Shown here: piece after piece, positions 1 to 30,725 of the stretch
How the letters are laid out: each line of letters starts with the position of its first letter
How positions within the stretch are numbered: position 1 is the first letter of the stretch
From: a virus
Lineage: Duplodnaviria > Caudoviricetes
Virus record (IMG/VR): IMGVR_UViG_3300037423_000302
Location: 1 to 30,773 of that record
DNA length: 30,773 bases
Strand: one strand, 5' to 3'
Translations under genes and position numbers: made by a program
The notes under the pieces: model-generated
The model's input: only the letters and a program-made list of their open reading frames with translations
Databases searched by the model: none
What the model was told of the DNA's origin: nothing

Positions 1-213
1 TAGCATTTGACTCCAAGCATATTCCCGGACATAACGGGATAGAACTGGGGAACTAGCGGATAATACGGCGAAATCATTGATGTTTAATCCTTCTTTCATC
101 CAAGAGCGGCACACTCCACGAATAGCCTTTAAAGCGGCGGCATCAGTGGTAGCAATCCATGTAGACGTTTCGATAACTTCACCCGTTTGCAAATTAGCGA
201 TTTGAATTTTCAT
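1..213 (-). CDS. Small early hypothetical protein, runs off the window edge (MKIQIANLQTGEVIETSTW...)
   Basis: Not in ORF track. GGAGGT SD 8 nt before ATG at 213; frame open for 71 codons to position 1. Confidence 0.7.
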   Translation of the reverse strand, partial: MKIQIANLQTGEVIETSTWIATTDAAALKAIRGVCRSWMKEGLNINDFAVLSASSPVLSRYVREYAWSQML

Positions 214-264
214 TAGTTCATACCTCCGATTTTTAATTTTTGAAATTTGATTTGTGAAACAATC

Positions 265-294
265 ACAGCCCACATACACAGGTATTTGGGCTGT
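265..294. other. Intergenic stem-loop, possible terminator or processing site
   Basis: ACAGCCCA/TGGGCTGT arms plus ATAC/GTAT inner pairs, between two leftward genes; no clear U-tract. Confidence 0.45.
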
Positions 295-316
295 ACATTT
301 ATCCACAAATTGTGAA

Positions 317-940
317 TTAGTTGTTGATAAACTCAATGCGGCAAATAGGCATTCCGTCTTTTCGTTGGTGGAATTCAAATCCAAATTCACCCATATTGTC
401 AATATCCACTTGATTAATTCTAGCTGTTTTCTTGAAAAAGCCAGTATCTTTCAGCAATTGAAAGGCGTCTTTAGAACTAGCGGATTCATGCAATTGCAAT
501 AGTTCATCATCTAAAGTTTCTTCCACACACATGTTATTGATTTCCCAGCCATCCTTTTTATTGCCCCAAACATCGAAATAATTGATAACCTTGATTTGTT
601 TGATACCTTTTGACCACTCAATATGAGCATGAGCGGCGTCCACTAGGTAAGCTGTACCTCTATCTACATTATCCACTTCAATTGTATGCTCCTCTTGGAA
701 TGACTTTGAGTATTGTTTGTTCAATTCACGTATGAATTGTGATTGAATTTTGCTAGTTGTATTGGAGTAACTGGTGCGATTGATGATTAATCCAAGTTCA
801 GAACGTTCAGCCAGACAAGTTGCATAGTTCATTAAACGCTTGCCATCGTTGCTAATCCATAGGTTGCCAGTGTGGGATTCGATATTGGTATTTCCTTGAA
901 AAAACATTTTGATAACCGTTTCATTATTATATTTTGCCAT
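317..940 (-). CDS. Early phage protein, probably two small domains (207 aa)
   Basis: Start moved from 1000 to ATG 940 (GGAGGT SD, 7 nt spacer). YSNTTSKIQ and YFDVWGNKKDGWEINN resemble motifs of uncharacterised phage early proteins. Confidence 0.75.
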   Translation of the reverse strand: MAKYNNETVIKMFFQGNTNIESHTGNLWISNDGKRLMNYATCLAERSELGLIINRTSYSNTTSKIQSQFIRELNKQYSKSFQEEHTIEVDNVDRGTAYLVDAAHAHIEWSKGIKQIKVINYFDVWGNKKDGWEINNMCVEETLDDELLQLHESASSKDAFQLLKDTGFFKKTARINQVDIDNMGEFGFEFHQRKDGMPICRIEFINN

Positions 941-1111
941 TTGTATTACCTCCAGATTTTTATTTGTAGAAACGTGTGATACTACATTTATTGTATCCAT
1001 ATCACATTAAACTTATTCCTACTACAATGTGATAATTTTACGGTAGTAGGTGCGTGACAATATCACATTGAAACTCATTTTGAAAAATCACTTGAGAGAG
1101 TGTTTAAGTTC

Positions 1112-1179
1112 ATGAATTTATTTACTATTGGCTACTACAAATCAGGTAAATATATCATTTCTGTAGTAAATAAATTCAT
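1112..1179. repeat. Perfect 16-bp inverted repeat ATGAATTTATTTACTA / TAGTAAATAAATTCAT, 36-bp spacer
   Basis: Arms read directly at 1112-1127 and 1164-1179. Confidence 0.85.
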
Positions 1180-1311
1180 CAATTAACAAGTTGCTGTACC
1201 AGTGTTTTTCAGATGACTCGGAAATAGTGAGAATATCAAAAATGGCTACTACATTTATTTTTTGTATGCAGTAAGAATATCACAAAAATGACATTGTGAT
1301 GAAAACATGTA

Positions 1312-1339
1312 GAAAAGGCATGTATTTGTAATACATGCC
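1312..1339 (-). terminator. Intrinsic terminator for the leftward small gene
   Basis: GGCATGTATT-ACA-AATACATGCC 10-bp stem followed by TTTTC on the minus strand, 12 nt after the stop at 1352. Confidence 0.7.
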
Positions 1340-1351
1340 ATTGTATAAATA

Positions 1352-1576
1352 TTACTTTGTAATTTTTGTGGCTTTTTTGTATTCACGCTTAATTTTTTGA
1401 AGTTGTAGAATTAAGTCTTGTAGTTGCTCCTCATTAGCAAAAAGTGTGACATCAACCTCAGTAGAATGTAGATTAATAACGTTATAAACGTCATCTGGCG
1501 TACTTGGATTGCTTGTTACATAGCCATCTACTTTTAAAATGTCACGTCTTGCATGGATTGAAAGGGATACACTCAT
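1352..1576 (-). CDS. Small hypothetical protein (~74 aa)
   Basis: ORF track 1352..1585; ATG at 1576 with weak SD; followed by a terminator; C-terminal amphipathic/basic helix. Confidence 0.55.
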   Translation of the reverse strand: MSVSLSIHARRDILKVDGYVTSNPSTPDDVYNVINLHSTEVDVTLFANEEQLQDLILQLQKIKREYKKATKITK

Positions 1577-1604
1577 TAGTTTCACTCACTTTTTAGTTGT
1601 AGTC

Positions 1605-1940
1605 ACACACAATGCACTTGTGTATGCCATTCAGCTAAAAAGCTGAGAGGGCATTTCACCCAGACTGCATACCCTACACGCTCTTTTATCCGGGCTTACC
1701 AGATAACTGCCTGTGCATTGTCGCAAATTGTTCCCCGGCGGTTTAAACCGAGAATTCCCTTTTATAGCGGGGAAGCTGGTGCCTACACCATAGCGGGGGC
1801 TATTTCTACAAATCACCCAAAAATTGTACTCGGTATGAACGGAGTGTCCGGGAGGCAGTCAAGCCGCTCCCCTCTATTTCTCCTTAGTTCCCATCCAAGC
1901 CGCCCCAGCGGGCAACCAAGCAAGGCGGGAACTATTAACT
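1605..1940 (-). ncRNA. Candidate multi-stem structured RNA (~335 nt) or long structured leader
   Basis: GC-rich island with at least 8 nested helices, several closing only with G-U pairs on the minus strand; promoter immediately upstream. Confidence 0.6.
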
Positions 1941-1946
1941 GTGATT

Positions 1947-1976
1947 AGCTTACCATACATTGTATGCACCCGTCAA
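1947..1976 (-). promoter_or_regulatory. sigmaA-type promoter, leftward
   Basis: TTGACG - 18 bp - TAAGCT with extended -10 TG. Confidence 0.6.
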
Positions 1977-2009
1977 GCAGGATATTCATACAATTTTTAA
2001 AAATTTTGT

Positions 2010-2187
2010 GTGTGGGTTTTCAGCCCACTTGACGCTTAACGTTCAACGGCTGGCGGTCTACACTGCCTGACAGACTGTAACCTACTCACCCGCTTCTACT
2101 GCCTGCACCATGGTACCCGTCAGGTATGCCGCTGGGATTTGTTCTTGTAGTACGTTGTCTGAAACTGATGTATTCGCTTGCCTTGAC
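2010..2187 (-). ncRNA. Second candidate structured RNA (~175 nt)
   Basis: GC-rich; helices 2066-2073/2117-2124, 2053-2056/2129-2132, 2012-2016/2024-2028, 2021-2025/2048-2052; weak promoter TTTAAA-17-TAGTAT at 2191-2219. Confidence 0.4.
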
Positions 2188-2429
2188 TTAATACTACTAC
2201 GGGCGTCACAACCTTTAAACCGTCATATTCAGCCGTTTTGGGCAGTTTTTACGGTAAAACCTTCGATTATCTCCGTTTATCTCACTGTATCGCAGTTTTT
2301 CATCTTTTTGTAGTAGATTATGCGATTGTTTCACACTACATTGTTTCACATGTGTGAAATGCTTCACAAACTACATGCGTGTATTTAATAGAAGAAAGTC
2401 GTTTCGGCGGTTTCTGGCGGCGTCTTTAA

Positions 2430-2446
2430 TGCAAGAATCGTGCCAA
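2430..2446 (-). promoter_or_regulatory. sigma54 (sigmaL)-type -24/-12 element
   Basis: Minus strand reads TTGGCACGATTCTTGCA, an exact match to TGGCAC-N5-TTGCA. Confidence 0.55.
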
Positions 2447-2784
2447 CTTTTGTGGTGAATGTGGACGTTATTATTGTACTATAATGTGTATGCTATTTTA
2501 ATATAGTGATTTAAGCACAAATAGTGTAATTTTACACCTACAATTCAAAAAGGCGTATGTATGCCAGAATGACGTATTTGGCGTATGCAGGCTTTTAATT
2601 TTTCAGATACTACGATACCCGGCGGCAATGGTGTACAATGGCGGGCAAATGTGGGCTTCTGGTGATTTTGGCATTCTGGCGGCTGATGGTGTATATTTAC
2701 ACTTTTTGTGTCATTCCCTAGTTCCCAACAAGGCAGGGTGTAACCAGACTGGTGACATGTATTGTAACTGATTACATTACAGGT

Positions 2785-2816
2785 GGGAGCAGGGTGGGTG
2801 GGTATAGGGGTAGGGG
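2785..2816 (+). other. Six G-tracts upstream of the packaging genes (G-quadruplex-capable; candidate pac/terminus region)
   Basis: GGGAGCAGGGTGGGTGGGTATAGGGGTAGGGG, ~190 bp before the putative terS. Confidence 0.5.
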
Positions 2817-2920
2817 TATGCCCCGGTCTGGCTCAAAACTTGAGTCCCTAATCGTACTACGGGCGGGAACTGTGCGGGGGAAACCTTAAAACCCCCTTGG
2901 TGTTGTCCCCTAAAAAACAC

Positions 2921-2950
2921 TTTACTACACCCATGCACATGAAGTATAAT
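2921..2950 (+). promoter_or_regulatory. Probable promoter of the packaging operon
   Basis: TTTACT - 18 bp - TATAAT ahead of an AAGGAGGT SD and ATG 3003. Confidence 0.5.
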
Positions 2951-3002
2951 ACAGATATATAAAAATAAAAAACTACAAATAATTGCAAAGGAGGTATACT
3001 CC

Positions 3003-3401
3003 ATGCTTACCAGTATGCTTGAACAATCGAATGCCCTAGCAGACTACTCACTACCCCAAAAAACAATCCTTATGACACTGGCTGGTAGGTTCCAGTCCCA
3101 GACAGATTACTTATTTCTAAACCCGGAGGAACTACAACAAGAAACTTCCCTAGGTTCCATTGAACAGTGGTATGCTCTACTAAACTTGCAGGAAACTAAG
3201 AACTACATTAAAGGGCAGATGGCGTTCTTGAGTCAAATCGCACAGCGTAAAACGTTTAAGGAACTAGTGGAAATGGCGTTGGATGGTAACCATCAAGCCG
3301 CAAAACAAGTACAGGAGTTAAGTGGCGTCCTTAACCAGCAGGATTCCAATAGAGTCGTAGTGTTGCATAGAATCCCAAGACCAGAACAGGGGGTACAATG
3401 A
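3003..3401 (+). CDS. Probable terminase small subunit
   Basis: Strong SD, 132 aa helical protein, first gene of the packaging operon. Function assigned by position only. Confidence 0.5.
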   Translation: MLTSMLEQSNALADYSLPQKTILMTLAGRFQSQTDYLFLNPEELQQETSLGSIEQWYALLNLQETKNYIKGQMAFLSQIAQRKTFKELVEMALDGNHQAAKQVQELSGVLNQQDSNRVVVLHRIPRPEQGVQ

Positions 3402-4264: not shown

Positions 4265-5776
4265 ATGTCTACTTGCTATAACTGCAAAGTTGGTGAAATG
4301 GTATCTCCTCCAGACCAACATCCTGCATACCTACAATGCAATTCCTGTATGGCGATTGAGTTAACATACAACCCACAGGATTACCAAGAGGAAATGCACA
4401 CAGTTAAGACAGGACAAGAGGATGATACTGACATTATAGCTGTATTCGGTGGATACGGTTCTGGTAAATCTAAAGCAACCTTAGAGGAATTTCTTCTAAG
4501 GGCTTTAGAGAATCCAAGAGGTAGCGGTCTGTTTGCGGCACAGACTTTGGGACAGTTGAAAAAGACAACTTTAAAGACATGGTTTGAAGAAGTATGTCCT
4601 CCTCCCCTCATTGAAAGCTATAATAAAACTGACGGAATTATCAAACTAGTCAATGGGTTTACTATCTTTATTGTAGCAACGGACGAAGAACAAAAAATAC
4701 GTTCCTTAAACTTAGGATTGGCACACGTGGAGGAGATTTCTGGTATCAAGAAATCCATCTACACACAGATTCAATCCCGTATGCGTGACCCATTCACACG
4801 TAACAAGGCAATCATTGTTTGTTCTAACCCGGCTAACACATGGATTAAGGATGTGTTCGTTGACAATGAAGCACGTAAAGACCCAAAACATCCACAGCAC
4901 AGCGAATATAACCGCTTCATGCGTACATTTGTCTGGAGAACTGAACTGAATAAGTACTTACCAGCCAACTTTATTGAAATGAACACCATTGGTAAGCCAG
5001 AATGGTACAGAAAGAAATACTTTGAAGGTTCTTTTGAATACAATAGCGGTATGGTATATCCAGAAATAGCAGATACATTTATTGACCCATACCCAGTTAC
5101 AAAAGATACTGACGAATATGGTATACCTAAAGACTGGGAACGTATGGTAGCCATGGACTATGGTTTACGTAACCCTACAGCTGTTCCATTTGGTGCCATC
5201 AATCCTAAAACTGGTGAAGTAGTTATTTTCAATGAGTATTATGTAGCTGAAAAAACACTACCTTATCACGCTAATAAACTAAAACCTTTGATTGATAAGA
5301 TTCCCTCAGGTCTTCTCAGGTTTTTAGTGGCTGACCCTGCCATCAAGAACAGGATGAATGACGTTATCTCCGGGAAAAACATACAATCTCACTTTATGGA
5401 GTACGGCATATTCTGGGCACTTGGTAATAACAACTTAGAATACGGACTGGCTAAAGTAAACTCCTACATCGAAGCTGGCAAACTGAAAATCTACAAGACC
5501 TGTGTAAACCTAATCAAAGAACTCTTGCAGTACACATATCCAGAAGTGGACATAGACAATGCAGACGAAAATCTGGATGAAAAACCAGAGAAGAAAAATG
5601 ACCACTTGTGTGACGCATTGAGATACATGATTGCGAGATTACCAGATGACCCAGAACATTTAAAATTGTCATCTTATAATCCACCAAAATCGTATGCAGG
5701 ATATGGAAACTATGATACAATTGAGTATGACGATGAACTTCCAGAGAAATTTGAGGATTATCTAGCCTATTATTAG
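4265..5776 (+). CDS. terL: Terminase large subunit
   Basis: Walker A GGYGSGKS, Walker B AHVEE, coupling motif CSNP, nuclease motifs MDYG and NDHLCDALRY; N-terminal CxxC...CxxC. Confidence 0.95.
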   Translation: MSTCYNCKVGEMVSPPDQHPAYLQCNSCMAIELTYNPQDYQEEMHTVKTGQEDDTDIIAVFGGYGSGKSKATLEEFLLRALENPRGSGLFAAQTLGQLKKTTLKTWFEEVCPPPLIESYNKTDGIIKLVNGFTIFIVATDEEQKIRSLNLGLAHVEEISGIKKSIYTQIQSRMRDPFTRNKAIIVCSNPANTWIKDVFVDNEARKDPKHPQHSEYNRFMRTFVWRTELNKYLPANFIEMNTIGKPEWYRKKYFEGSFEYNSGMVYPEIADTFIDPYPVTKDTDEYGIPKDWERMVAMDYGLRNPTAVPFGAINPKTGEVVIFNEYYVAEKTLPYHANKLKPLIDKIPSGLLRFLVADPAIKNRMNDVISGKNIQSHFMEYGIFWALGNNNLEYGLAKVNSYIEAGKLKIYKTCVNLIKELLQYTYPEVDIDNADENLDEKPEKKNDHLCDALRYMIARLPDDPEHLKLSSYNPPKSYAGYGNYDTIEYDDELPEKFEDYLAYY

Positions 5777-20964: not shown

Positions 20965-23900
20965 ATGGCGGCTTCAAAAGAAATCCAAGCGGCTACTAAT
21001 TCAGCAAATGCTCAAATTGAGGCATTAATGAAGCAACTAGGGGGAATGAGTTATTCACGCCCTAGTTCCTATTCTGGATACCAGTCTGGATATACTCCTG
21101 TAGATAGGAGTTTACCAGATTGGAAACCAGCGGATTTAGATGTCGGTGATTTTATTTCACTGGCAAAGGAAAAGAAAGATGGTAAGAGTAAGGTTAATTT
21201 ATGGGATGTTCTATCTGGAACATTGGGTCAACCATCTGGTCTAGCTACATCTTCTATTTATAACACTGTCAAGACACTTACCGATAAAGATACTCCACTT
21301 TGGAAAAAACTTTTCACTGCCGCAAATCCACTAAATGATGCCATTGGTCAAGCATTGAAAAACGGTGGTAAAGAACAATGGAAAGACTGGAAAGATGGGA
21401 AACTATCTTGGGGTGATGTTCCGGGAGTGGGATTCCTTCATGGTATGGACAAAGGATATAAGCGTGGCGGCGATATCATGAGAGATATTGCTGGCGTTGA
21501 AAACAAATGGGGAGTAATGGGTGGAGGTTTAGCTATTGATATTGCGGCTGACCCGCTTACCTATCTCACCTTAGGTGCGTCTGCGGCAAGTAAAGTCAGT
21601 AAAGCGGCAGAAGCGGCTGAAATGGCTAACCAAGCTAGAAAGCTAGGTCTTAATTCAACTAAGTTCAAAAATGCGGCAGAATTCCAAGCGGCGGCAGAAG
21701 CGAAACTAGCGGAAAGATACGCTAAATATCCTAATCTATCACAGTCAATGGCTAAAGCAAAAGCTGGTACAATGCGTAATGAAATTGCAGAGAAATCAGC
21801 AGAAGCGGCAAGGGCACTGACTCAACGATTGGCAACTAAGAAAACGGATGAAGCCATGCAAGCTATCAATGCGGCGAGAGCAAAAGCATTTAACTCAAAT
21901 GTCAACTCCTTTGGTTTTAGTGTACCGTTCACAAACAAGGTTGGTATTGCTGGACAGTATGGAGAAAAGATGATGGGTGGATTACTCAAGAATCCTCTTT
22001 ATCGGTCAGAAGCTACAGTAGGTAATGATTTAGTAGAGAATTTATTGAAAACGGCAACTGGCGGGGATTCTGCACTAGCTAAACAATTTGAAGACATAGC
22101 TAAAACCAGATTGGGAATCAGTGATATTTCACAGATGACAAAAACTCAATTCGATGAACTACATGAATTCCTACAACCACTAATACAGCAATTGAGTAAG
22201 GGCGGTTTACCAGATGTAGAAGTAGTGTCGAAAATTGTAGAAAATGTCATGCCGCAAGCTGACTTTGACAGGTTAATGACTGAATTCGTAAACCAGAACA
22301 TTCCTTGGAAAGATGTACAAAAACAACTAAATGGATTTATGTCTGTCATAGGTAAAGACCCGGTTTTGCGGGAAACTGCCGGGAAAGTAATGGCTCAAAA
22401 AATAGCTGACTTCTGGGCTAAGAAAGCAATCAGAGCAAGAAAGCCAGCTAATGTATTGGAAAATGCCGCAAAATCAGATTCAATGGGATGGGCTAGTCGT
22501 TTCCTAGGTGGGTCTGGAAAATACCAAACGGTTGAAAATACAGTTAAGGCTGTACATCCAAAAGGCAATCCAACATCTATTGTAGAAGCAAGCGGTCAAA
22601 TTCAGAAACTTGGTCAAGTTCAAAAAGATGGTAGAGCAATCGGCAAAGCCATGGATGACTTAGAAAATACACCTTATGCTAGATTAAGTGACACCAAGAC
22701 TACATTCGAACATTTTCTTGACAGGAATAATCCATTCGATTCCCGGACATTGAACACCAGCGATAAGTTCCTTAACACGATGGGTGACCATATCTCTGAT
22801 GCTCATTCCCAGCGTGTCGGTGAAACTGCTATGTACAGCAAGGATTTATCTCAAATTCAGAAATTTGTTAAAGATGGCGGATATACTGATAAGGAAATGC
22901 AGGAAGCCATTTACGCTTTGGAAAATCATTTCCCTAGTTCCTATGGTAAAAACTACACTCCTACTACAAGAGTACAGGAACTAGCGGATACACTTAAACC
23001 AATCATCCAGCGTATCGGTGACAATGAAACTGCTGGTGGGGTGTTAAGTAAACTAAGAGCAAATTACTTCCCACACGTTCGTAATTTTGAAGGTGACAGC
23101 ATGGAAGCAATTGCCGACTACATGGCACGTAACCGTTCTCTCCTAGGTCTGAAAAGCAACAACGCATTCAACAACGCACGTAAAGGATTCCAGACTTTAG
23201 CTGAAAGAGATAACTACATCGAAAAAGTAAGAAAAGCTATACAAAAGGAGACTGACCCTGCTACAATAGAATCATTAGAGAAACATCTTGAGTCTGTAGC
23301 AAAAATGTTCGATACAAATGTAGTAACCGCTCTTACCCGTCGTGTACGTGAAGGTGTTCGTGCCAAAGCTATGAAAGCCATGCAAGGGGAATTGAGTAAG
23401 TTCGGCATGATGAAAACCATCAAGAAAGGGTCAGGTGAAGCCCCTCCATCTGGATTTAAGAGATTAGAACCAGATGAAGTAAAGAAACTTGGACTACCAG
23501 AAGGTACTCATTATATGCACCCGGAAGTTTTCAAAGCCTTACAGCGAACAGATGAAATCTTCACTAATGAAGGTATGAACAAAGCGGCACGTTTCGTATC
23601 CGCCATTGGTGACATCTGGAGACCACTGGTTACCTACTACAAACCAGCCCACTATATCAACAACATGATTGGTAACACAATCAACAACATGGCGGCTGGA
23701 GTAAAGGTAAGGGATGTTAAAAACGCTAGTAAACTACTGATGAAGTATCGTAAAGGTACACTGAATGATGAAGAAATGAAAATCATCAAAGCGGCATACA
23801 AACACAATGTAATCTCCGGGGGATTTTTATTTGACTCACGACCTACTTTTGAATTCGATAAGCCTTGGGCTATTGAAAAGTTTGCAGAAAAAGTAGGAGA

Positions 23901-24549
23901 TAACAAAGTGGTCAAGAAAATCCGTCATGGCGGGGAAGTCATTGATGATGTATCCCGTTTAGCAAACTTCTTAAATGGCGTTGATAAATTCGGCAGTACA
24001 GCGAAAGCCGCACAGCAAGTACGGAAATACCTGTTCAACTACAACGAATTAACTAACGCAGATAGAGGAATGCGTGTCTTAGTTCCGTTTTGGAACTGGA
24101 TGAAACGTAACATCCCGCTTCAGTTAAAACTACTGCAAGAGACACCGGGATTCGCTTTAAATGTTGAGAGATTCAAAGATTACTGGAATGATGGGGAAAA
24201 AGGTGCAGATTGGCAGAAGGAATCCGGGCTTAAATTTGGTGACTACTACACGACTTTACCTTCTCCTACGAATGATTTAAGTACCGTCTTAAATCCAATG
24301 GATTCCCTAGGTTCGCTTACACCAGCTATTAAAATGCCTATAGAAATGAAAACAAACAAAAGCCTGTTCACAGGTAACCCAATTAGTTACGGTTCAAATG
24401 AACTACAGAATGAGGATATGTTATCCTACATCATGTCTAACTTGGGTATCGGAAACAACGTTTATCAAGGTGTAACTGGTGACAAATCCGCTTTTGAAAA
24501 AATCATGAGTGTGATTAAACCAGTATCCAGAGTGAATCCAAATCAATAG
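20965..24549 (+). CDS. Large internal virion / DNA-ejection protein (1194 aa)
   Basis: Largest, helical, last gene before lysis; DIAADPLTYLTLG, NYFPH and LVPFWNWMKRN segments seen in podovirus ejection proteins. Confidence 0.7.
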   Translation: MAASKEIQAATNSANAQIEALMKQLGGMSYSRPSSYSGYQSGYTPVDRSLPDWKPADLDVGDFISLAKEKKDGKSKVNLWDVLSGTLGQPSGLATSSIYNTVKTLTDKDTPLWKKLFTAANPLNDAIGQALKNGGKEQWKDWKDGKLSWGDVPGVGFLHGMDKGYKRGGDIMRDIAGVENKWGVMGGGLAIDIAADPLTYLTLGASAASKVSKAAEAAEMANQARKLGLNSTKFKNAAEFQAAAEAKLAERYAKYPNLSQSMAKAKAGTMRNEIAEKSAEAARALTQRLATKKTDEAMQAINAARAKAFNSNVNSFGFSVPFTNKVGIAGQYGEKMMGGLLKNPLYRSEATVGNDLVENLLKTATGGDSALAKQFEDIAKTRLGISDISQMTKTQFDELHEFLQPLIQQLSKGGLPDVEVVSKIVENVMPQADFDRLMTEFVNQNIPWKDVQKQLNGFMSVIGKDPVLRETAGKVMAQKIADFWAKKAIRARKPANVLENAAKSDSMGWASRFLGGSGKYQTVENTVKAVHPKGNPTSIVEASGQIQKLGQVQKDGRAIGKAMDDLENTPYARLSDTKTTFEHFLDRNNPFDSRTLNTSDKFLNTMGDHISDAHSQRVGETAMYSKDLSQIQKFVKDGGYTDKEMQEAIYALENHFPSSYGKNYTPTTRVQELADTLKPIIQRIGDNETAGGVLSKLRANYFPHVRNFEGDSMEAIADYMARNRSLLGLKSNNAFNNARKGFQTLAERDNYIEKVRKAIQKETDPATIESLEKHLESVAKMFDTNVVTALTRRVREGVRAKAMKAMQGELSKFGMMKTIKKGSGEAPPSGFKRLEPDEVKKLGLPEGTHYMHPEVFKALQRTDEIFTNEGMNKAARFVSAIGDIWRPLVTYYKPAHYINNMIGNTINNMAAGVKVRDVKNASKLLMKYRKGTLNDEEMKIIKAAYKHNVISGGFLFDSRPTFEFDKPWAIEKFAEKVGDNKVVKKIRHGGEVIDDVSRLANFLNGVDKFGSTAKAAQQVRKYLFNYNELTNADRGMRVLVPFWNWMKRNIPLQLKLLQETPGFALNVERFKDYWNDGEKGADWQKESGLKFGDYYTTLPSPTNDLSTVLNPMDSLGSLTPAIKMPIEMKTNKSLFTGNPISYGSNELQNEDMLSYIMSNLGIGNNVYQGVTGDKSAFEKIMSVIKPVSRVNPNQ

Positions 24550-24561
24550 GAGGAGAAGGGG

Positions 24562-24801
24562 ATGACACATGTGCCTTATAAATGCGAATGTGAGGGGAGG
24601 GTTACCTCCTTGGAAATTCGTATGGCTGTTGCTGAAAGTGATATCAAAAACGTCAGAGAAGACATTTCATCAATCAAGGATGATACAAAATGGCTACGTA
24701 GAGCGATTACAAATGCTCTTATAGTAGGCGGCATTACACTAGCTGTTGGTGTAGTGTCCGCTGTAATAATCTTTATTATGAAGGGAGGAACTATTTCATG
24801 A
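24562..24801 (+). CDS. XhlA-like lysis membrane protein
   Basis: Coiled coil then IKDDTKWLRR and one C-terminal TM helix; first lysis gene. Confidence 0.8.
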   Translation: MTHVPYKCECEGRVTSLEIRMAVAESDIKNVREDISSIKDDTKWLRRAITNALIVGGITLAVGVVSAVIIFIMKGGTIS

Positions 24802-28902: not shown

Positions 28903-28925
28903 TAAAATTCATGCCACATACAGGA

Positions 28926-28953
28926 AACTTTTTGGATGGTAGTGCATATAGTT
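28926..28953 (+). promoter_or_regulatory. sigmaK/sigmaE-like (mother-cell) promoter candidate
   Basis: AC (28927-8) - 16 bp - CATATAGT fits AC...CATAnnnT; directly before the SD of the cassette; I saw no sigmaA match on this strand. Confidence 0.45.
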
Positions 28954-28973
28954 TAGTAAAGGGGGTTGCTACC

Positions 28974-29126
28974 ATGGTAGTAAAGATAAACGGCAAACCG
29001 ATTCAAGTCAAAGAGGATGAAGCAAAGGACATTGATTGGATTCTGCTTGCTCTGACCGTCATTGGCTATGGACTAATTTTCTGGATTGTTCGCTTGGCAT
29101 TTGTAACTTTTGTGGGGGTGCTGTAA
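28974..29126 (+). CDS. Small membrane protein (50 aa)
   Basis: Start moved to ATG 28974 (AAAGGGGG SD); hydrophobic C-terminal half; TAATG coupling to the ATPase. Confidence 0.75.
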   Translation: MVVKINGKPIQVKEDEAKDIDWILLALTVIGYGLIFWIVRLAFVTFVGVL

Positions 29127-30349
29127 TGTGGTGGAAAAAGAAACATCCTTTAGTTCGGAGAATGCTTAACGTATTGCTGGAGAAAAAATTTGATGGCGGC
29201 TGGATTAACAAAGTGTACAGAGAAGGGGATGTCCTATATGCAAACGTTTATCTACCAGAACAAAAAGAACTTTCGGACTTGGAGAAAATATTACCGAATT
29301 TGCAACAGGAAGTTGGAGCCACAGCGGTCAAACTGGGGAAAATAAGCGGCAAGCGTGTGGAGATTAAATTTGGAATGCGGGAACTAACGGAGATTAAATT
29401 CAATGAATCCTCCCTAGTTCCCAACAGCCTTAAATTAAAATTCCCATCTGCCTACGGGGAAGCGGTATTAGATTTTGAGGACGGAGCAAGCTGTCACATG
29501 CTCAATGGCGGGGTCACACGTATGGGAAAGACCTGTTTCCTACTGTTCCTAGCCACAAGCATTTACATTCAAAATGAGGGCAATGTAGGGCTTTATATCA
29601 GTAGTGCCAAACTAAAAGATTATTACCCGTTTGAGGGATTGCCGGGAGTGGAAATGACACGTGATGTTGAGTCCATGGAACGTATGTTAGAAGAAATCAT
29701 AACTGAATACAAATTTAGAGACTCAATGTTATACTCTAGTTTCCTCAACAAAGCTACAGACGCAAAGAGTGTTCGTAAACTATACCCACAATATTATCAC
29801 CTATTCAAACCAATCTTTTTAATCATTGACGAATATGCCCGTTTTGCTGAATCCAAAAATGTACAGCAGATGGTCACTGAAATTGTAGAAACGGCTGGAT
29901 TTGTTAATATCCACGTCATACTAGCCAGCCAAAGACCTGACGCTTCTACCGTATTAAGACCACGAATTAGGGCAAACATGCTATGTAGAATGGCATTCAC
30001 AACCGCAGACAGGAAGAACAGTGAAGTCATACTTGACCGGGAAGGAGCAGAGAAACTAGGGAAAATAGCAGGGAGGGGAATGCTACTTGATTCAGATTTA
30101 CATGTCATACAGGTTCCTTATTTAGATGTAGTAGACTGTGACAAATTATTGGAGGTCTATAGGAATGAACAAAGTAGAACGGGACAATGTAGTATTGGAA
30201 ATGGTGACGAAATTCAAAGTATGCTCAAGGAACCAACTGGCATGGATGGTATGCCGCCAGAACAGCAACCCAATCAACGTGGTGAACAGGGTATTGAAAC
30301 GTATGACGTTGAATGGCTGTTTAACCCAGATTCAGAGGGAAAGGGATAA
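29126..30349 (+). CDS. FtsK/SpoIIIE-family (coupling-protein-like) ATPase, 407 aa
   Basis: Start moved to ATG 29126 (GGGGGTG SD). Walker A GGVTRMGKT, Walker B LIIDE, ASQRPD, GAEKL...GRG; no TM segment or gamma domain. Confidence 0.9.
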   Translation: MWWKKKHPLVRRMLNVLLEKKFDGGWINKVYREGDVLYANVYLPEQKELSDLEKILPNLQQEVGATAVKLGKISGKRVEIKFGMRELTEIKFNESSLVPNSLKLKFPSAYGEAVLDFEDGASCHMLNGGVTRMGKTCFLLFLATSIYIQNEGNVGLYISSAKLKDYYPFEGLPGVEMTRDVESMERMLEEIITEYKFRDSMLYSSFLNKATDAKSVRKLYPQYYHLFKPIFLIIDEYARFAESKNVQQMVTEIVETAGFVNIHVILASQRPDASTVLRPRIRANMLCRMAFTTADRKNSEVILDREGAEKLGKIAGRGMLLDSDLHVIQVPYLDVVDCDKLLEVYRNEQSRTGQCSIGNGDEIQSMLKEPTGMDGMPPEQQPNQRGEQGIETYDVEWLFNPDSEGKG

Positions 30350-30725
30350 ACCATACCTTTACATGCCCAATCCTACCCTAATCCATCCCAGAACGGTAAA
30401 AATTGACCACTATCTTAAAATCGTAGACTGTTACATTCACTTTGGTTGCCCGGATGTATTTGAGGTAGAACCCGCATACAAAACTTATAACCCAGATGTA
30501 TATATGAAAGACAGGAAGGGGAATGCTATCTGTGTGGAGGTACAGATTACTCCAATCAGCACCAAGAAAATGCAGACTAAGATTGACCAGTTTGTAAGCA
30601 CATACGGTAAGGGGCATGACGCAAAAATCATGCTCCTAATCTCTAATCAAGAATACCATAAGGTAGTCATGCCGCCATCCTTTAAGTTGGTTAGAATCCC
30701 AATACCCAAAGAACCGTATGTATAA
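30165..30725 (+). CDS. Replication-relaxation (Replic_Relax) family protein, wHTH plus PD-(D/E)xK-like domain
   Basis: Start moved to ATG 30165 (GGAGGT SD). RD..VL...SRNQL...NRVLKRM, DHYL, PDVY, VEVQ, KI..F motifs; typical neighbour of this ATPase. Confidence 0.8.
   Translation: MNKVERDNVVLEMVTKFKVCSRNQLAWMVCRQNSNPINVVNRVLKRMTLNGCLTQIQRERDKPYLYMPNPTLIHPRTVKIDHYLKIVDCYIHFGCPDVFEVEPAYKTYNPDVYMKDRKGNAICVEVQITPISTKKMQTKIDQFVSTYGKGHDAKIMLLISNQEYHKVVMPPSFKLVRIPIPKEPYV

Follow-up and report, generated by a model that had tools for sequence, protein, structure and literature searches.

What is the roughly 335-nt structured stretch at positions 1605-1940 of this phage genome: an RNA in its own right, or part of a messenger? 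The first-pass annotation had read it as an unrecognised multi-domain RNA, either a novel non-coding RNA (decoy, packaging or guide-like) or a switchable leader for the gene at 1352-1576. The window, by which we mean the whole analysed stretch of 30,773 nt, belongs to a phage record that is 64% complete. Genes for terminase, portal, capsid, tail and lysis lie in its rightward block; helicase, primase and DNA polymerase come from a second record of this phage, which overlaps the first. The closest named matches of its terminase are the Paenibacillus phages API480 and SV21 (35%), while the XkdW, YozD and XhlA-type holin families among the ORFs hint at Bacillota; several families thus point to an uncultured phage of Bacillota type. 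The early genes read leftward from a promoter cluster adjoining a putative small terminase gene (3003-3401), which was assigned by position and had no relative among the prokaryote genomes searched. Since the small leftward genes start at the non-coding control region, the segment sits at the head of the early operon.

Several other features were observed in this genome and its relatives, the latter being syntenic phages obtained from terminase searches. A GC-rich block (2780-2930) immediately upstream of the putative small terminase gene is kept in L107, L109, L008 and L010 and is a possible packaging or genome-end signal. On the 3′ side of the first early gene, 1000-1310 is AT-rich and contains inverted repeats as well as repeated ACTACA/TGTAG and GTGATA words, possibly an origin or operator cluster; its counterparts lie at L008 6250-6720 and L010 80-700, and these two are 67% identical over 500 nt. 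A rightward island at 28911-30725 (an FtsK/SpoIIIE-like ATPase and a replication-initiation-like protein) lies within the leftward block, and the phage bearing it also encodes its own DNA polymerase. Unusually strong folding was predicted for two coding stretches, 23781-24116 and 24453-24788 (z -5.6 and -4.3, 14 shuffles). In L013 (1400-3185) the match to the terminase large subunit is split across two ORFs about 190 nt apart, possibly by an intron or insertion.

The segment belongs to no known family, in agreement with the first description. Rfam, whose families include riboswitches, GOLLD, ROOL, 6S, SRP, RNase P and CRISPR repeats, returned 0 matches at the gathering score in the window and 0 at E <= 10 in 1590-1950, the four matches in 1000-3050 being at chance level and outside that interval, and tRNA and tmRNA were excluded by ARAGORN (0 genes). 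The hairpin at 1686-1706 has what we take to be a likeness to a twister arm; RF03160 gave 0 matches at E <= 10, and the twister ribozyme was discarded. Likenesses to a CRISPR repeat and to boxA/boxB were also considered. A CRISPR-repeat mimic was rejected, with no match to the CRISPR-repeat Rfam families, and the window has a single boxA-like word, which falls on the strand that is not transcribed. Phi29 prohead RNA has a stable three-way junction and serves a packaging motor that lacks a PBSX/T4-type terminase large subunit; here terminase large subunit and portal are both present, the junction helix has a probability of 0.00, and this candidate was also set aside. The presence of these two proteins makes a packaging RNA in general unlikely. 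In blastn against phages, 1300-2300 had no match at E <= 1 and 1580-2000 had two chance matches of 20-25 nt, and the plasmid search for leader homologues gave nothing. A pattern taken from 1649-1663 hit 68 viral loci, one of them in an identical phage (L096); the only other blast match among these loci, L103, was dismissed because it lies in coding sequence of a GC-rich virus that is unrelated. No paper on the leader of this phage group was found in the literature covered, mostly open-access texts.

A guide-like RNA was among the first proposals, and the first helix of the segment had been described as made of a dispersed motif. The 8-mer occurs in 8 copies against 0.8 expected, four of them within genes, and its 6-base core in 53 copies, which occupy either strand and every frame of late genes. 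With a word so common genome-wide the idea of motif targeting fails, and a guide would have no partner, as no reverse transcriptase or RNA-guided nuclease family was recognised among the ORFs scanned. Restriction-type words are purged from the window and from G003 and G005: GATC is found 0 times against about 281-300 expected, and GGCC, GCGC, CGCG, GCWGC, GGWCC and GAGCT are absent or nearly so. In the window GCGGC is enriched six-fold. Of the GA-N-CTA words, 76 copies carry A and 18 carry C at the variable base, and neither G nor T occurs there; the excess of the motif is therefore probably a residue left by restriction-site avoidance.

The reading that we develop here is built on the following features.

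1947..1976, minus strand: putative host sigma-A-type early promoter found by pattern search, with -35 TTGACG, 18 nt and a TG-extended -10 TAAGCT
1885..1934, minus strand: 5′-terminal stem of about 18 bp in total, its basal 8 bp with P 0.96-0.98
1899..1921, minus strand: conserved bulged tip hairpin of 23 nt (3 bp, 5-nt bulge, 4 bp, 4-nt loop)
1725..1880, minus strand: middle region of weak, interchangeable hairpins, holding a duplicated 9-mer (z -0.9)
1686..1706, minus strand: stable 8-bp hairpin with a 5-nt loop (P 0.97-0.98 on the minus strand, 0.24 on the plus)
1585..1647, minus strand: 26-bp imperfect rod, most pairs with P 0.77-1.0, a predicted RNase III-type site
1352..1576, minus strand: first early gene, 74 aa, of unassigned function, homologous to one in the L008 early region
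1317..1339, minus strand: intrinsic terminator-like hairpin after the first gene, the sole terminator-like site in 1-3100
250..310, minus strand: second long rod of the same type, about 25 bp in length, lying between the early genes that come next (z -5.4, 0/200 shuffles)

The leftward promoter at 1976-1947 had already been proposed. Its consensus is weak, 8/12 bases, which is below the cut-off of the promoter scan, so that it is unlisted there; but it has the TG extension and is conserved in L008 7650-7708 (71% over 59 nt, E 2e-5). When viral contigs were scanned with the promoter pattern, the matches were L008 and an identical copy of this phage only. Transcription is predicted to start near 1940. 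The scan of 1-3100 found no terminator-like site between this promoter and the 74-aa gene, and the hairpin at 1317-1339 is likely the 3′ end of a predicted transcript of about 630 nt; shuffles of the same region yield 2.3 sites, so that a single site is weak evidence alone. The 74-aa gene is taken as real because it has a homologue in the L008 early region (29% identity at the protein level, E 6e-5). Neither Pfam nor PHROG gave a match for its product, and a comparison with proteins of similar length returned only itself. The unit is thus better read as a 364-nt leader in a predicted transcript, running from the promoter to the ATG at 1576. Of the original proposal of a leader for the 1352-1576 gene, the link to the gene stands, but the RNA segment is unbounded by a terminator, and its 3′ limit at 1605 was wrongly placed: the strongest element, the rod, runs past it. 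By eye, a 10-codon ORF at about 310-345 of L108 (minus strand) resembles the start of the 74-aa gene and follows a short leader; it is possibly a truncated orthologous position without the long leader.

We then considered the folding of the segment as a whole. On the minus strand, every position is complementary in all nine arm pairs named in the first-pass annotation; in two of the nine a C-A mismatch on the plus strand becomes a G-U pair on the minus. Calculated for 1605-1940 on the minus strand, mean pair probabilities were high for 1885-1892/1927-1934 (0.96), 1686-1693/1699-1706 (0.97), 1631-1636/1641-1646 (0.93) and 1777-1781/1786-1790 (0.76), low for 1850-1854/1867-1871 (0.10) and 1731-1737/1768-1774 (0.12), and near zero in the 3′ domain for its closing helix 1609-1617/1713-1721 (0.02), for 1622-1627/1667-1672 (0.00) and for 1649-1652/1658-1661 (0.06). 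When the transcript was extended into the gene, the hairpin 1631-1646 dropped to 0.09 and 1649-1661 climbed to 0.92. With the closing helix and the three-way junction at near-zero probability and a penalty of 9-14 kcal/mol against the free fold when the whole model is forced, the multi-domain architecture of about 335 nt finds no support. The folding z of 1605-1940 was -2.36 on the minus strand and -1.94 on the plus; in a run with 14 shuffles it was -1.49, and 7/45 genome windows of equal size were at -2.3 or lower. The segment is then more stable than the shuffle mean (z -1.5 to -2.4), as had been expected of it, but does not stand out from the genome background. The number of perfect helices of 6-9 bp did not surpass that in shuffles, 17-62 of the 150 shuffles matching the observed count. 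The whole leader, 1578-1940, had a z of -2.8, and 0/100 shuffles were equally stable.

At the 5′ end of this leader, the stem 1885-1934, whose base is the first helix of the earlier description, has a z of -2.7, with 5/300 shuffles equally stable, and is likely a 5′ stabiliser. Its tip hairpin is shared with L008 7603-7632 and L010 1137-1166, where it stands on a basal stem of differing sequence. In both it follows an upstream promoter, a second promoter lying between hairpin and long leader. Over the three phages 21/21 cells are paired, with one two-sided and one one-sided change; there is then one compensatory pair, but the covariation is not significant (three sequences; 173/500 shuffles reach it). 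The other full copy of the leader (G002) is 100% identical to the window and so gives no covariation information. A pattern for the hairpin matched 13 viral loci, three of them true (L138, L144 and L146) and the other 10 judged unrelated by eye, and 0 loci in genome contigs. This 23-nt hairpin is uncatalogued, and offers a small target for probing antitermination or stability.

Taking into account that the promoter and this hairpin are the only sequence-conserved parts of the leader region, the hairpin being 20-35 nt past the early promoter in three phages, it could be a cis antitermination signal of the put or nut kind, by which polymerase would read through 1339-1317 into the early operon. 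The terminator-like site after the first gene and the lack of a strong consensus promoter ahead of the 940 gene fit such a role, and in HK022 the put RNAs are situated downstream of early promoters (PMC9378689). We nevertheless hold it to be unlikely: put consists of two stems over about 70 nt and here one stem is conserved and the second is not, the early strand of L008 has no terminator-like site after its first gene, a model of the hairpin found no further copy in 23 sources searched, more distant relatives among them, and no antiterminator protein family was recognised among the ORFs.

At the other end of the leader, the rod 1585-1647 came into view once the fold was extended to the start codon, and is the most significant element of all (z -4.0 and -4.7; 0/200 and 0/300 shuffles as stable). 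The base of the rod is formed by pairing with the A-rich stretch ahead of the SD and with an SD-like GUGAG. With 26 predicted bp it has the length of an RNase III substrate, the idealised form of which measures 22 bp (PMC3867540); the rods of the window and its relatives showed no clear common sequence determinants. The energy for opening the ribosome-binding site was no higher than with shuffled leaders, 5.1 against 5.0 +/- 1.2 kcal/mol in the window and, among the relatives, 7.1 against 7.4 in L037, the other three being within about one s.d. (the L010 start was entered as 729, for 727). Relief of a masked ribosome-binding site is thus unsupported by this test.

The same region could instead form a two-state translational switch, in which the domain closed by 1609-1617/1713-1721 is ON and the rod over the SD is OFF, toggled by folding kinetics or a protein. 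The two helices are mutually exclusive, both using the strand 1609-1617; the first is a perfect 9-bp helix, and in isolation the domain 1605-1725 is nearly isoenergetic with the optimum (-41.0 vs -41.8, a difference of 0.8 kcal/mol). But it is 6.5 kcal/mol worse when the SD region is included, with P <= 0.13 at the nine transcript lengths tested, its 9-bp helix arises in 17/150 shuffles, the downstream gene differs in each relative and masking of the ribosome-binding site is not above control. The switch first proposed also invoked the duplicated 9-mer. Its copies at 1764 and 1790 are indeed there, each with 8/9 pairs to 1869-1877, but these alternative pairings have a probability of 0.03 or less each. 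The exclusive helices leave the switchable leader, in our view, a low probability.

Between the two ends, the middle (1725-1880) folds like shuffles, 56/300 being equally stable, and had no significant alignment with the leaders of L008, L037 or L121. It opens with a purine tract (1864-1886) bearing SD-like words without a well-placed start codon. The hairpin 1686-1706, used as a pattern, hit 10 loci, 9 of them unrelated, and no homologue.

The arrangement was compared in the relatives. In L008, L010 and L037 a TTGACA-type promoter is followed by 347-369 gene-free nt with a z of -4.2, -4.8 and -3.7, and by rods of 22-32 bp adjacent to the ribosome-binding site (z -5.5, -8.0 and -8.5), the L010 start being again 729 in the leader runs. 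The ORFs downstream of the four leaders, of 74, 149, 21 and 101 codons, are unrelated. Aligning the four leaders, or their 3′ rods, with MAFFT gave no useful information, and the middles could not be aligned. Among nine relatives that have the region and a promoter-like site, a long, well-folded leader is present in 3; the leader of L121 is long (258 nt) and folds like shuffles, those of L108, L113, L115 and L117 are short, and that of L107 was left out of the folding. The long leader is therefore optional, not universal. Similar rods stand ahead of further early genes, at 250-310 in the window and at 5215-5285 and 4610-4690 in L008. In a gap-matched set of gene starts from related phages, from which the L010 early start is absent (ORF < 50 codons), a z of -3 or lower was found at 10/27 early against 4/27 late starts (Fisher p 0.12, not significant; Mann-Whitney p 0.027); for unmatched, hand-picked starts, with L010 entered as above, the counts were 10/34 and 0/19. 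L037 also shows three tandem promoters, at 2057, 2211 and 2345, and a 12-nt perfect inverted repeat (2002-2085) flanking the proximal early promoter.

These comparisons bear on two further explanations. One is that the leader yields a stable trans-acting RNA of about 300 nt, freed by cleavage of the rod, which would act as a decoy for a protein of host defence or one that binds RNA; host conflict would then account for how fast its sequence changes. In its favour, a length of about 350 nt and strong folding persist in three relatives whose sequences cannot be aligned, the RNA would rank among the first made, and in Kayvirus early promoters give rise to abundant lncRNAs (PMC7698491). On the other hand, the middle has no common fold or motif and in the window folds like shuffles, there is no CRISPR-repeat, tRNA or other Rfam match, and several relatives lack the long leader; to this whole account, host conflict included, we give little credence. 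Nor is a discrete, stand-alone RNA of about 335 nt, as first described, retained, since it has no 3′ terminator, its junction is disfavoured, and its middle cannot be aligned and is differently folded in relatives.

The other explanation is that the features act as DNA, as operators or cruciforms near a genome end or origin, or are mostly chance products of a decayed, GC-rich stretch. Relative to its shuffles the plus strand is almost as well folded, the z of the segment is within the genome background, the AT-rich inverted-repeat region is 300 nt away, and a piece of the L037 leader resembles the L121 promoter. Against these points, several helices have G-U pairs that work on the minus strand only, rods with z of -4 to -8.5 occupy the same position next to the ribosome-binding site in four phages, and bulged rods would make poor DNA cruciforms; we judge the DNA or chance origin a poor prospect. 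The claim of a minus-strand, structured, non-coding segment is upheld, with positional conservation in its support: it is a real but modest structured leader, whose 3′ fold and boundary had been misassigned.

Some relatives carry ribozymes between their early genes.

L115 4262-4330, 3943-4009 and 2657-2722, minus strand: type II hammerheads between early genes, from descriptor and folds
L116 1819-1887, 1497-1563 and 327-392, minus strand: type II hammerheads between early genes, from the descriptor
L037 462-516, minus strand: type II hammerhead between early genes

In L115 and L037 together, 3/4 hammerheads end about 25 nt ahead of a gene start, and the three copies of L115 keep the core and differ in the stems. 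The descriptor that recovers those of L037, L115 and L116 finds none in the window, and a hammerhead there was discounted; RF02276 gave 0 in G000, a blank that is weak because at E <= 0.1 those of L115 also escaped this model. In this family, either rods or hammerheads appear to punctuate the early transcript.

Putting these observations together, we propose that the segment is a 364-nt untranslated leader of the first early mRNA, stabilised at its 5′ end and with a predicted RNase III cut in the rod, a reading that we put at somewhat better than even. Host RNA polymerase would start near 1940 from the promoter 1976-1947; the 5′ stem-loop would shield the transcript end from RNase J-type decay; host RNase III would cut the 26-bp rod just ahead of the ribosome-binding site, leaving the first gene with a trimmed message to which ribosomes may have better access. 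The middle would be a spacer, variable in sequence and loosely folded, and the hammerheads of the relatives would serve the same purpose as the rods. The support observed consists of the conservation of the promoter, the absence of a terminator before the gene, the computed folded ends and the layout shared with three relatives. Processing fails to explain why about 350 nt are retained. A more daring idea, which we think rather unlikely, is that in Bacillota phages the conserved bulged 5′ hairpin is an RNA that brings about antitermination or binds polymerase without the help of a protein, and that the RNase III-freed leader of about 300 nt persists as a folded early RNA, which retains its length and stability while its sequence is replaced wholesale from one close relative to another; if true, put RNA would have a Gram-positive counterpart, or the arms race between host and phage would involve an RNA decoy.

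Cleavage at R0.3 raises the translation of gene 0.3. What the phages studied here share with the early region of T7 and T3 is a cluster of host-polymerase promoters at the operon end, numbering two or three in relatives; an untranslated leader follows, and immediately ahead of the first ribosome-binding site stands a long imperfect hairpin, with more of them between later early genes. Five RNase III signals are present in the polycistronic early precursor of T7 (PMC3867540), and R0.3 of T3/T7 lies after promoters A1-A3 (PMC3276506). The differences are the Gram-positive host, the lack of sequence similarity, the conserved bulged 5′ hairpin, the cleavage, which here is predicted, and the hammerheads that some relatives place at such positions. 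A second comparison is with SP82 and the cryIIIA STAB-SD, where a Firmicute phage early transcript also has RNase III-type stem-loops (PMC4838370 and PMC7509114); the former cites sites for B. subtilis RNase III in the early mRNA of SP82. The SP82 polypurine stabiliser and STAB-SD have a parallel in the purine tract 1864-1886, with its SD-like words and no good start codon; this tract differs in following the 5′ stem and not a mapped cut, and it is unconserved in relatives. With HK022 put the leader has in common a structured nascent RNA just 3′ of an early promoter (PMC9378689), while one stem and not two is conserved here, there is no sequence likeness and the activity is putative only. GOLLD, ROOL and the Kayvirus lncRNA1/2 are likewise phage-borne, hundreds of nt long and without a protein product; the leader differs from them in having no Rfam match, no neighbouring tRNA genes, no conserved fold and no terminator of its own. 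With the intergenic type II hammerheads (RF02276) the likeness is one of place, L037, L115 and L116 carrying them between early genes near ribosome-binding sites, whereas the window itself has none. Phage hammerheads that flank genes have been proposed to act in transcript processing (PMC3088659), where the role of phage ribozymes is an open point. By analogy, the mechanism would be one already known from T7 and SP82, membership of the present leader depending on the predicted cleavage. If our main reading holds, RNase III-type rods and hammerheads occupy equivalent early-operon positions within one phage family, and would provide a natural comparison for the role of these ribozymes.
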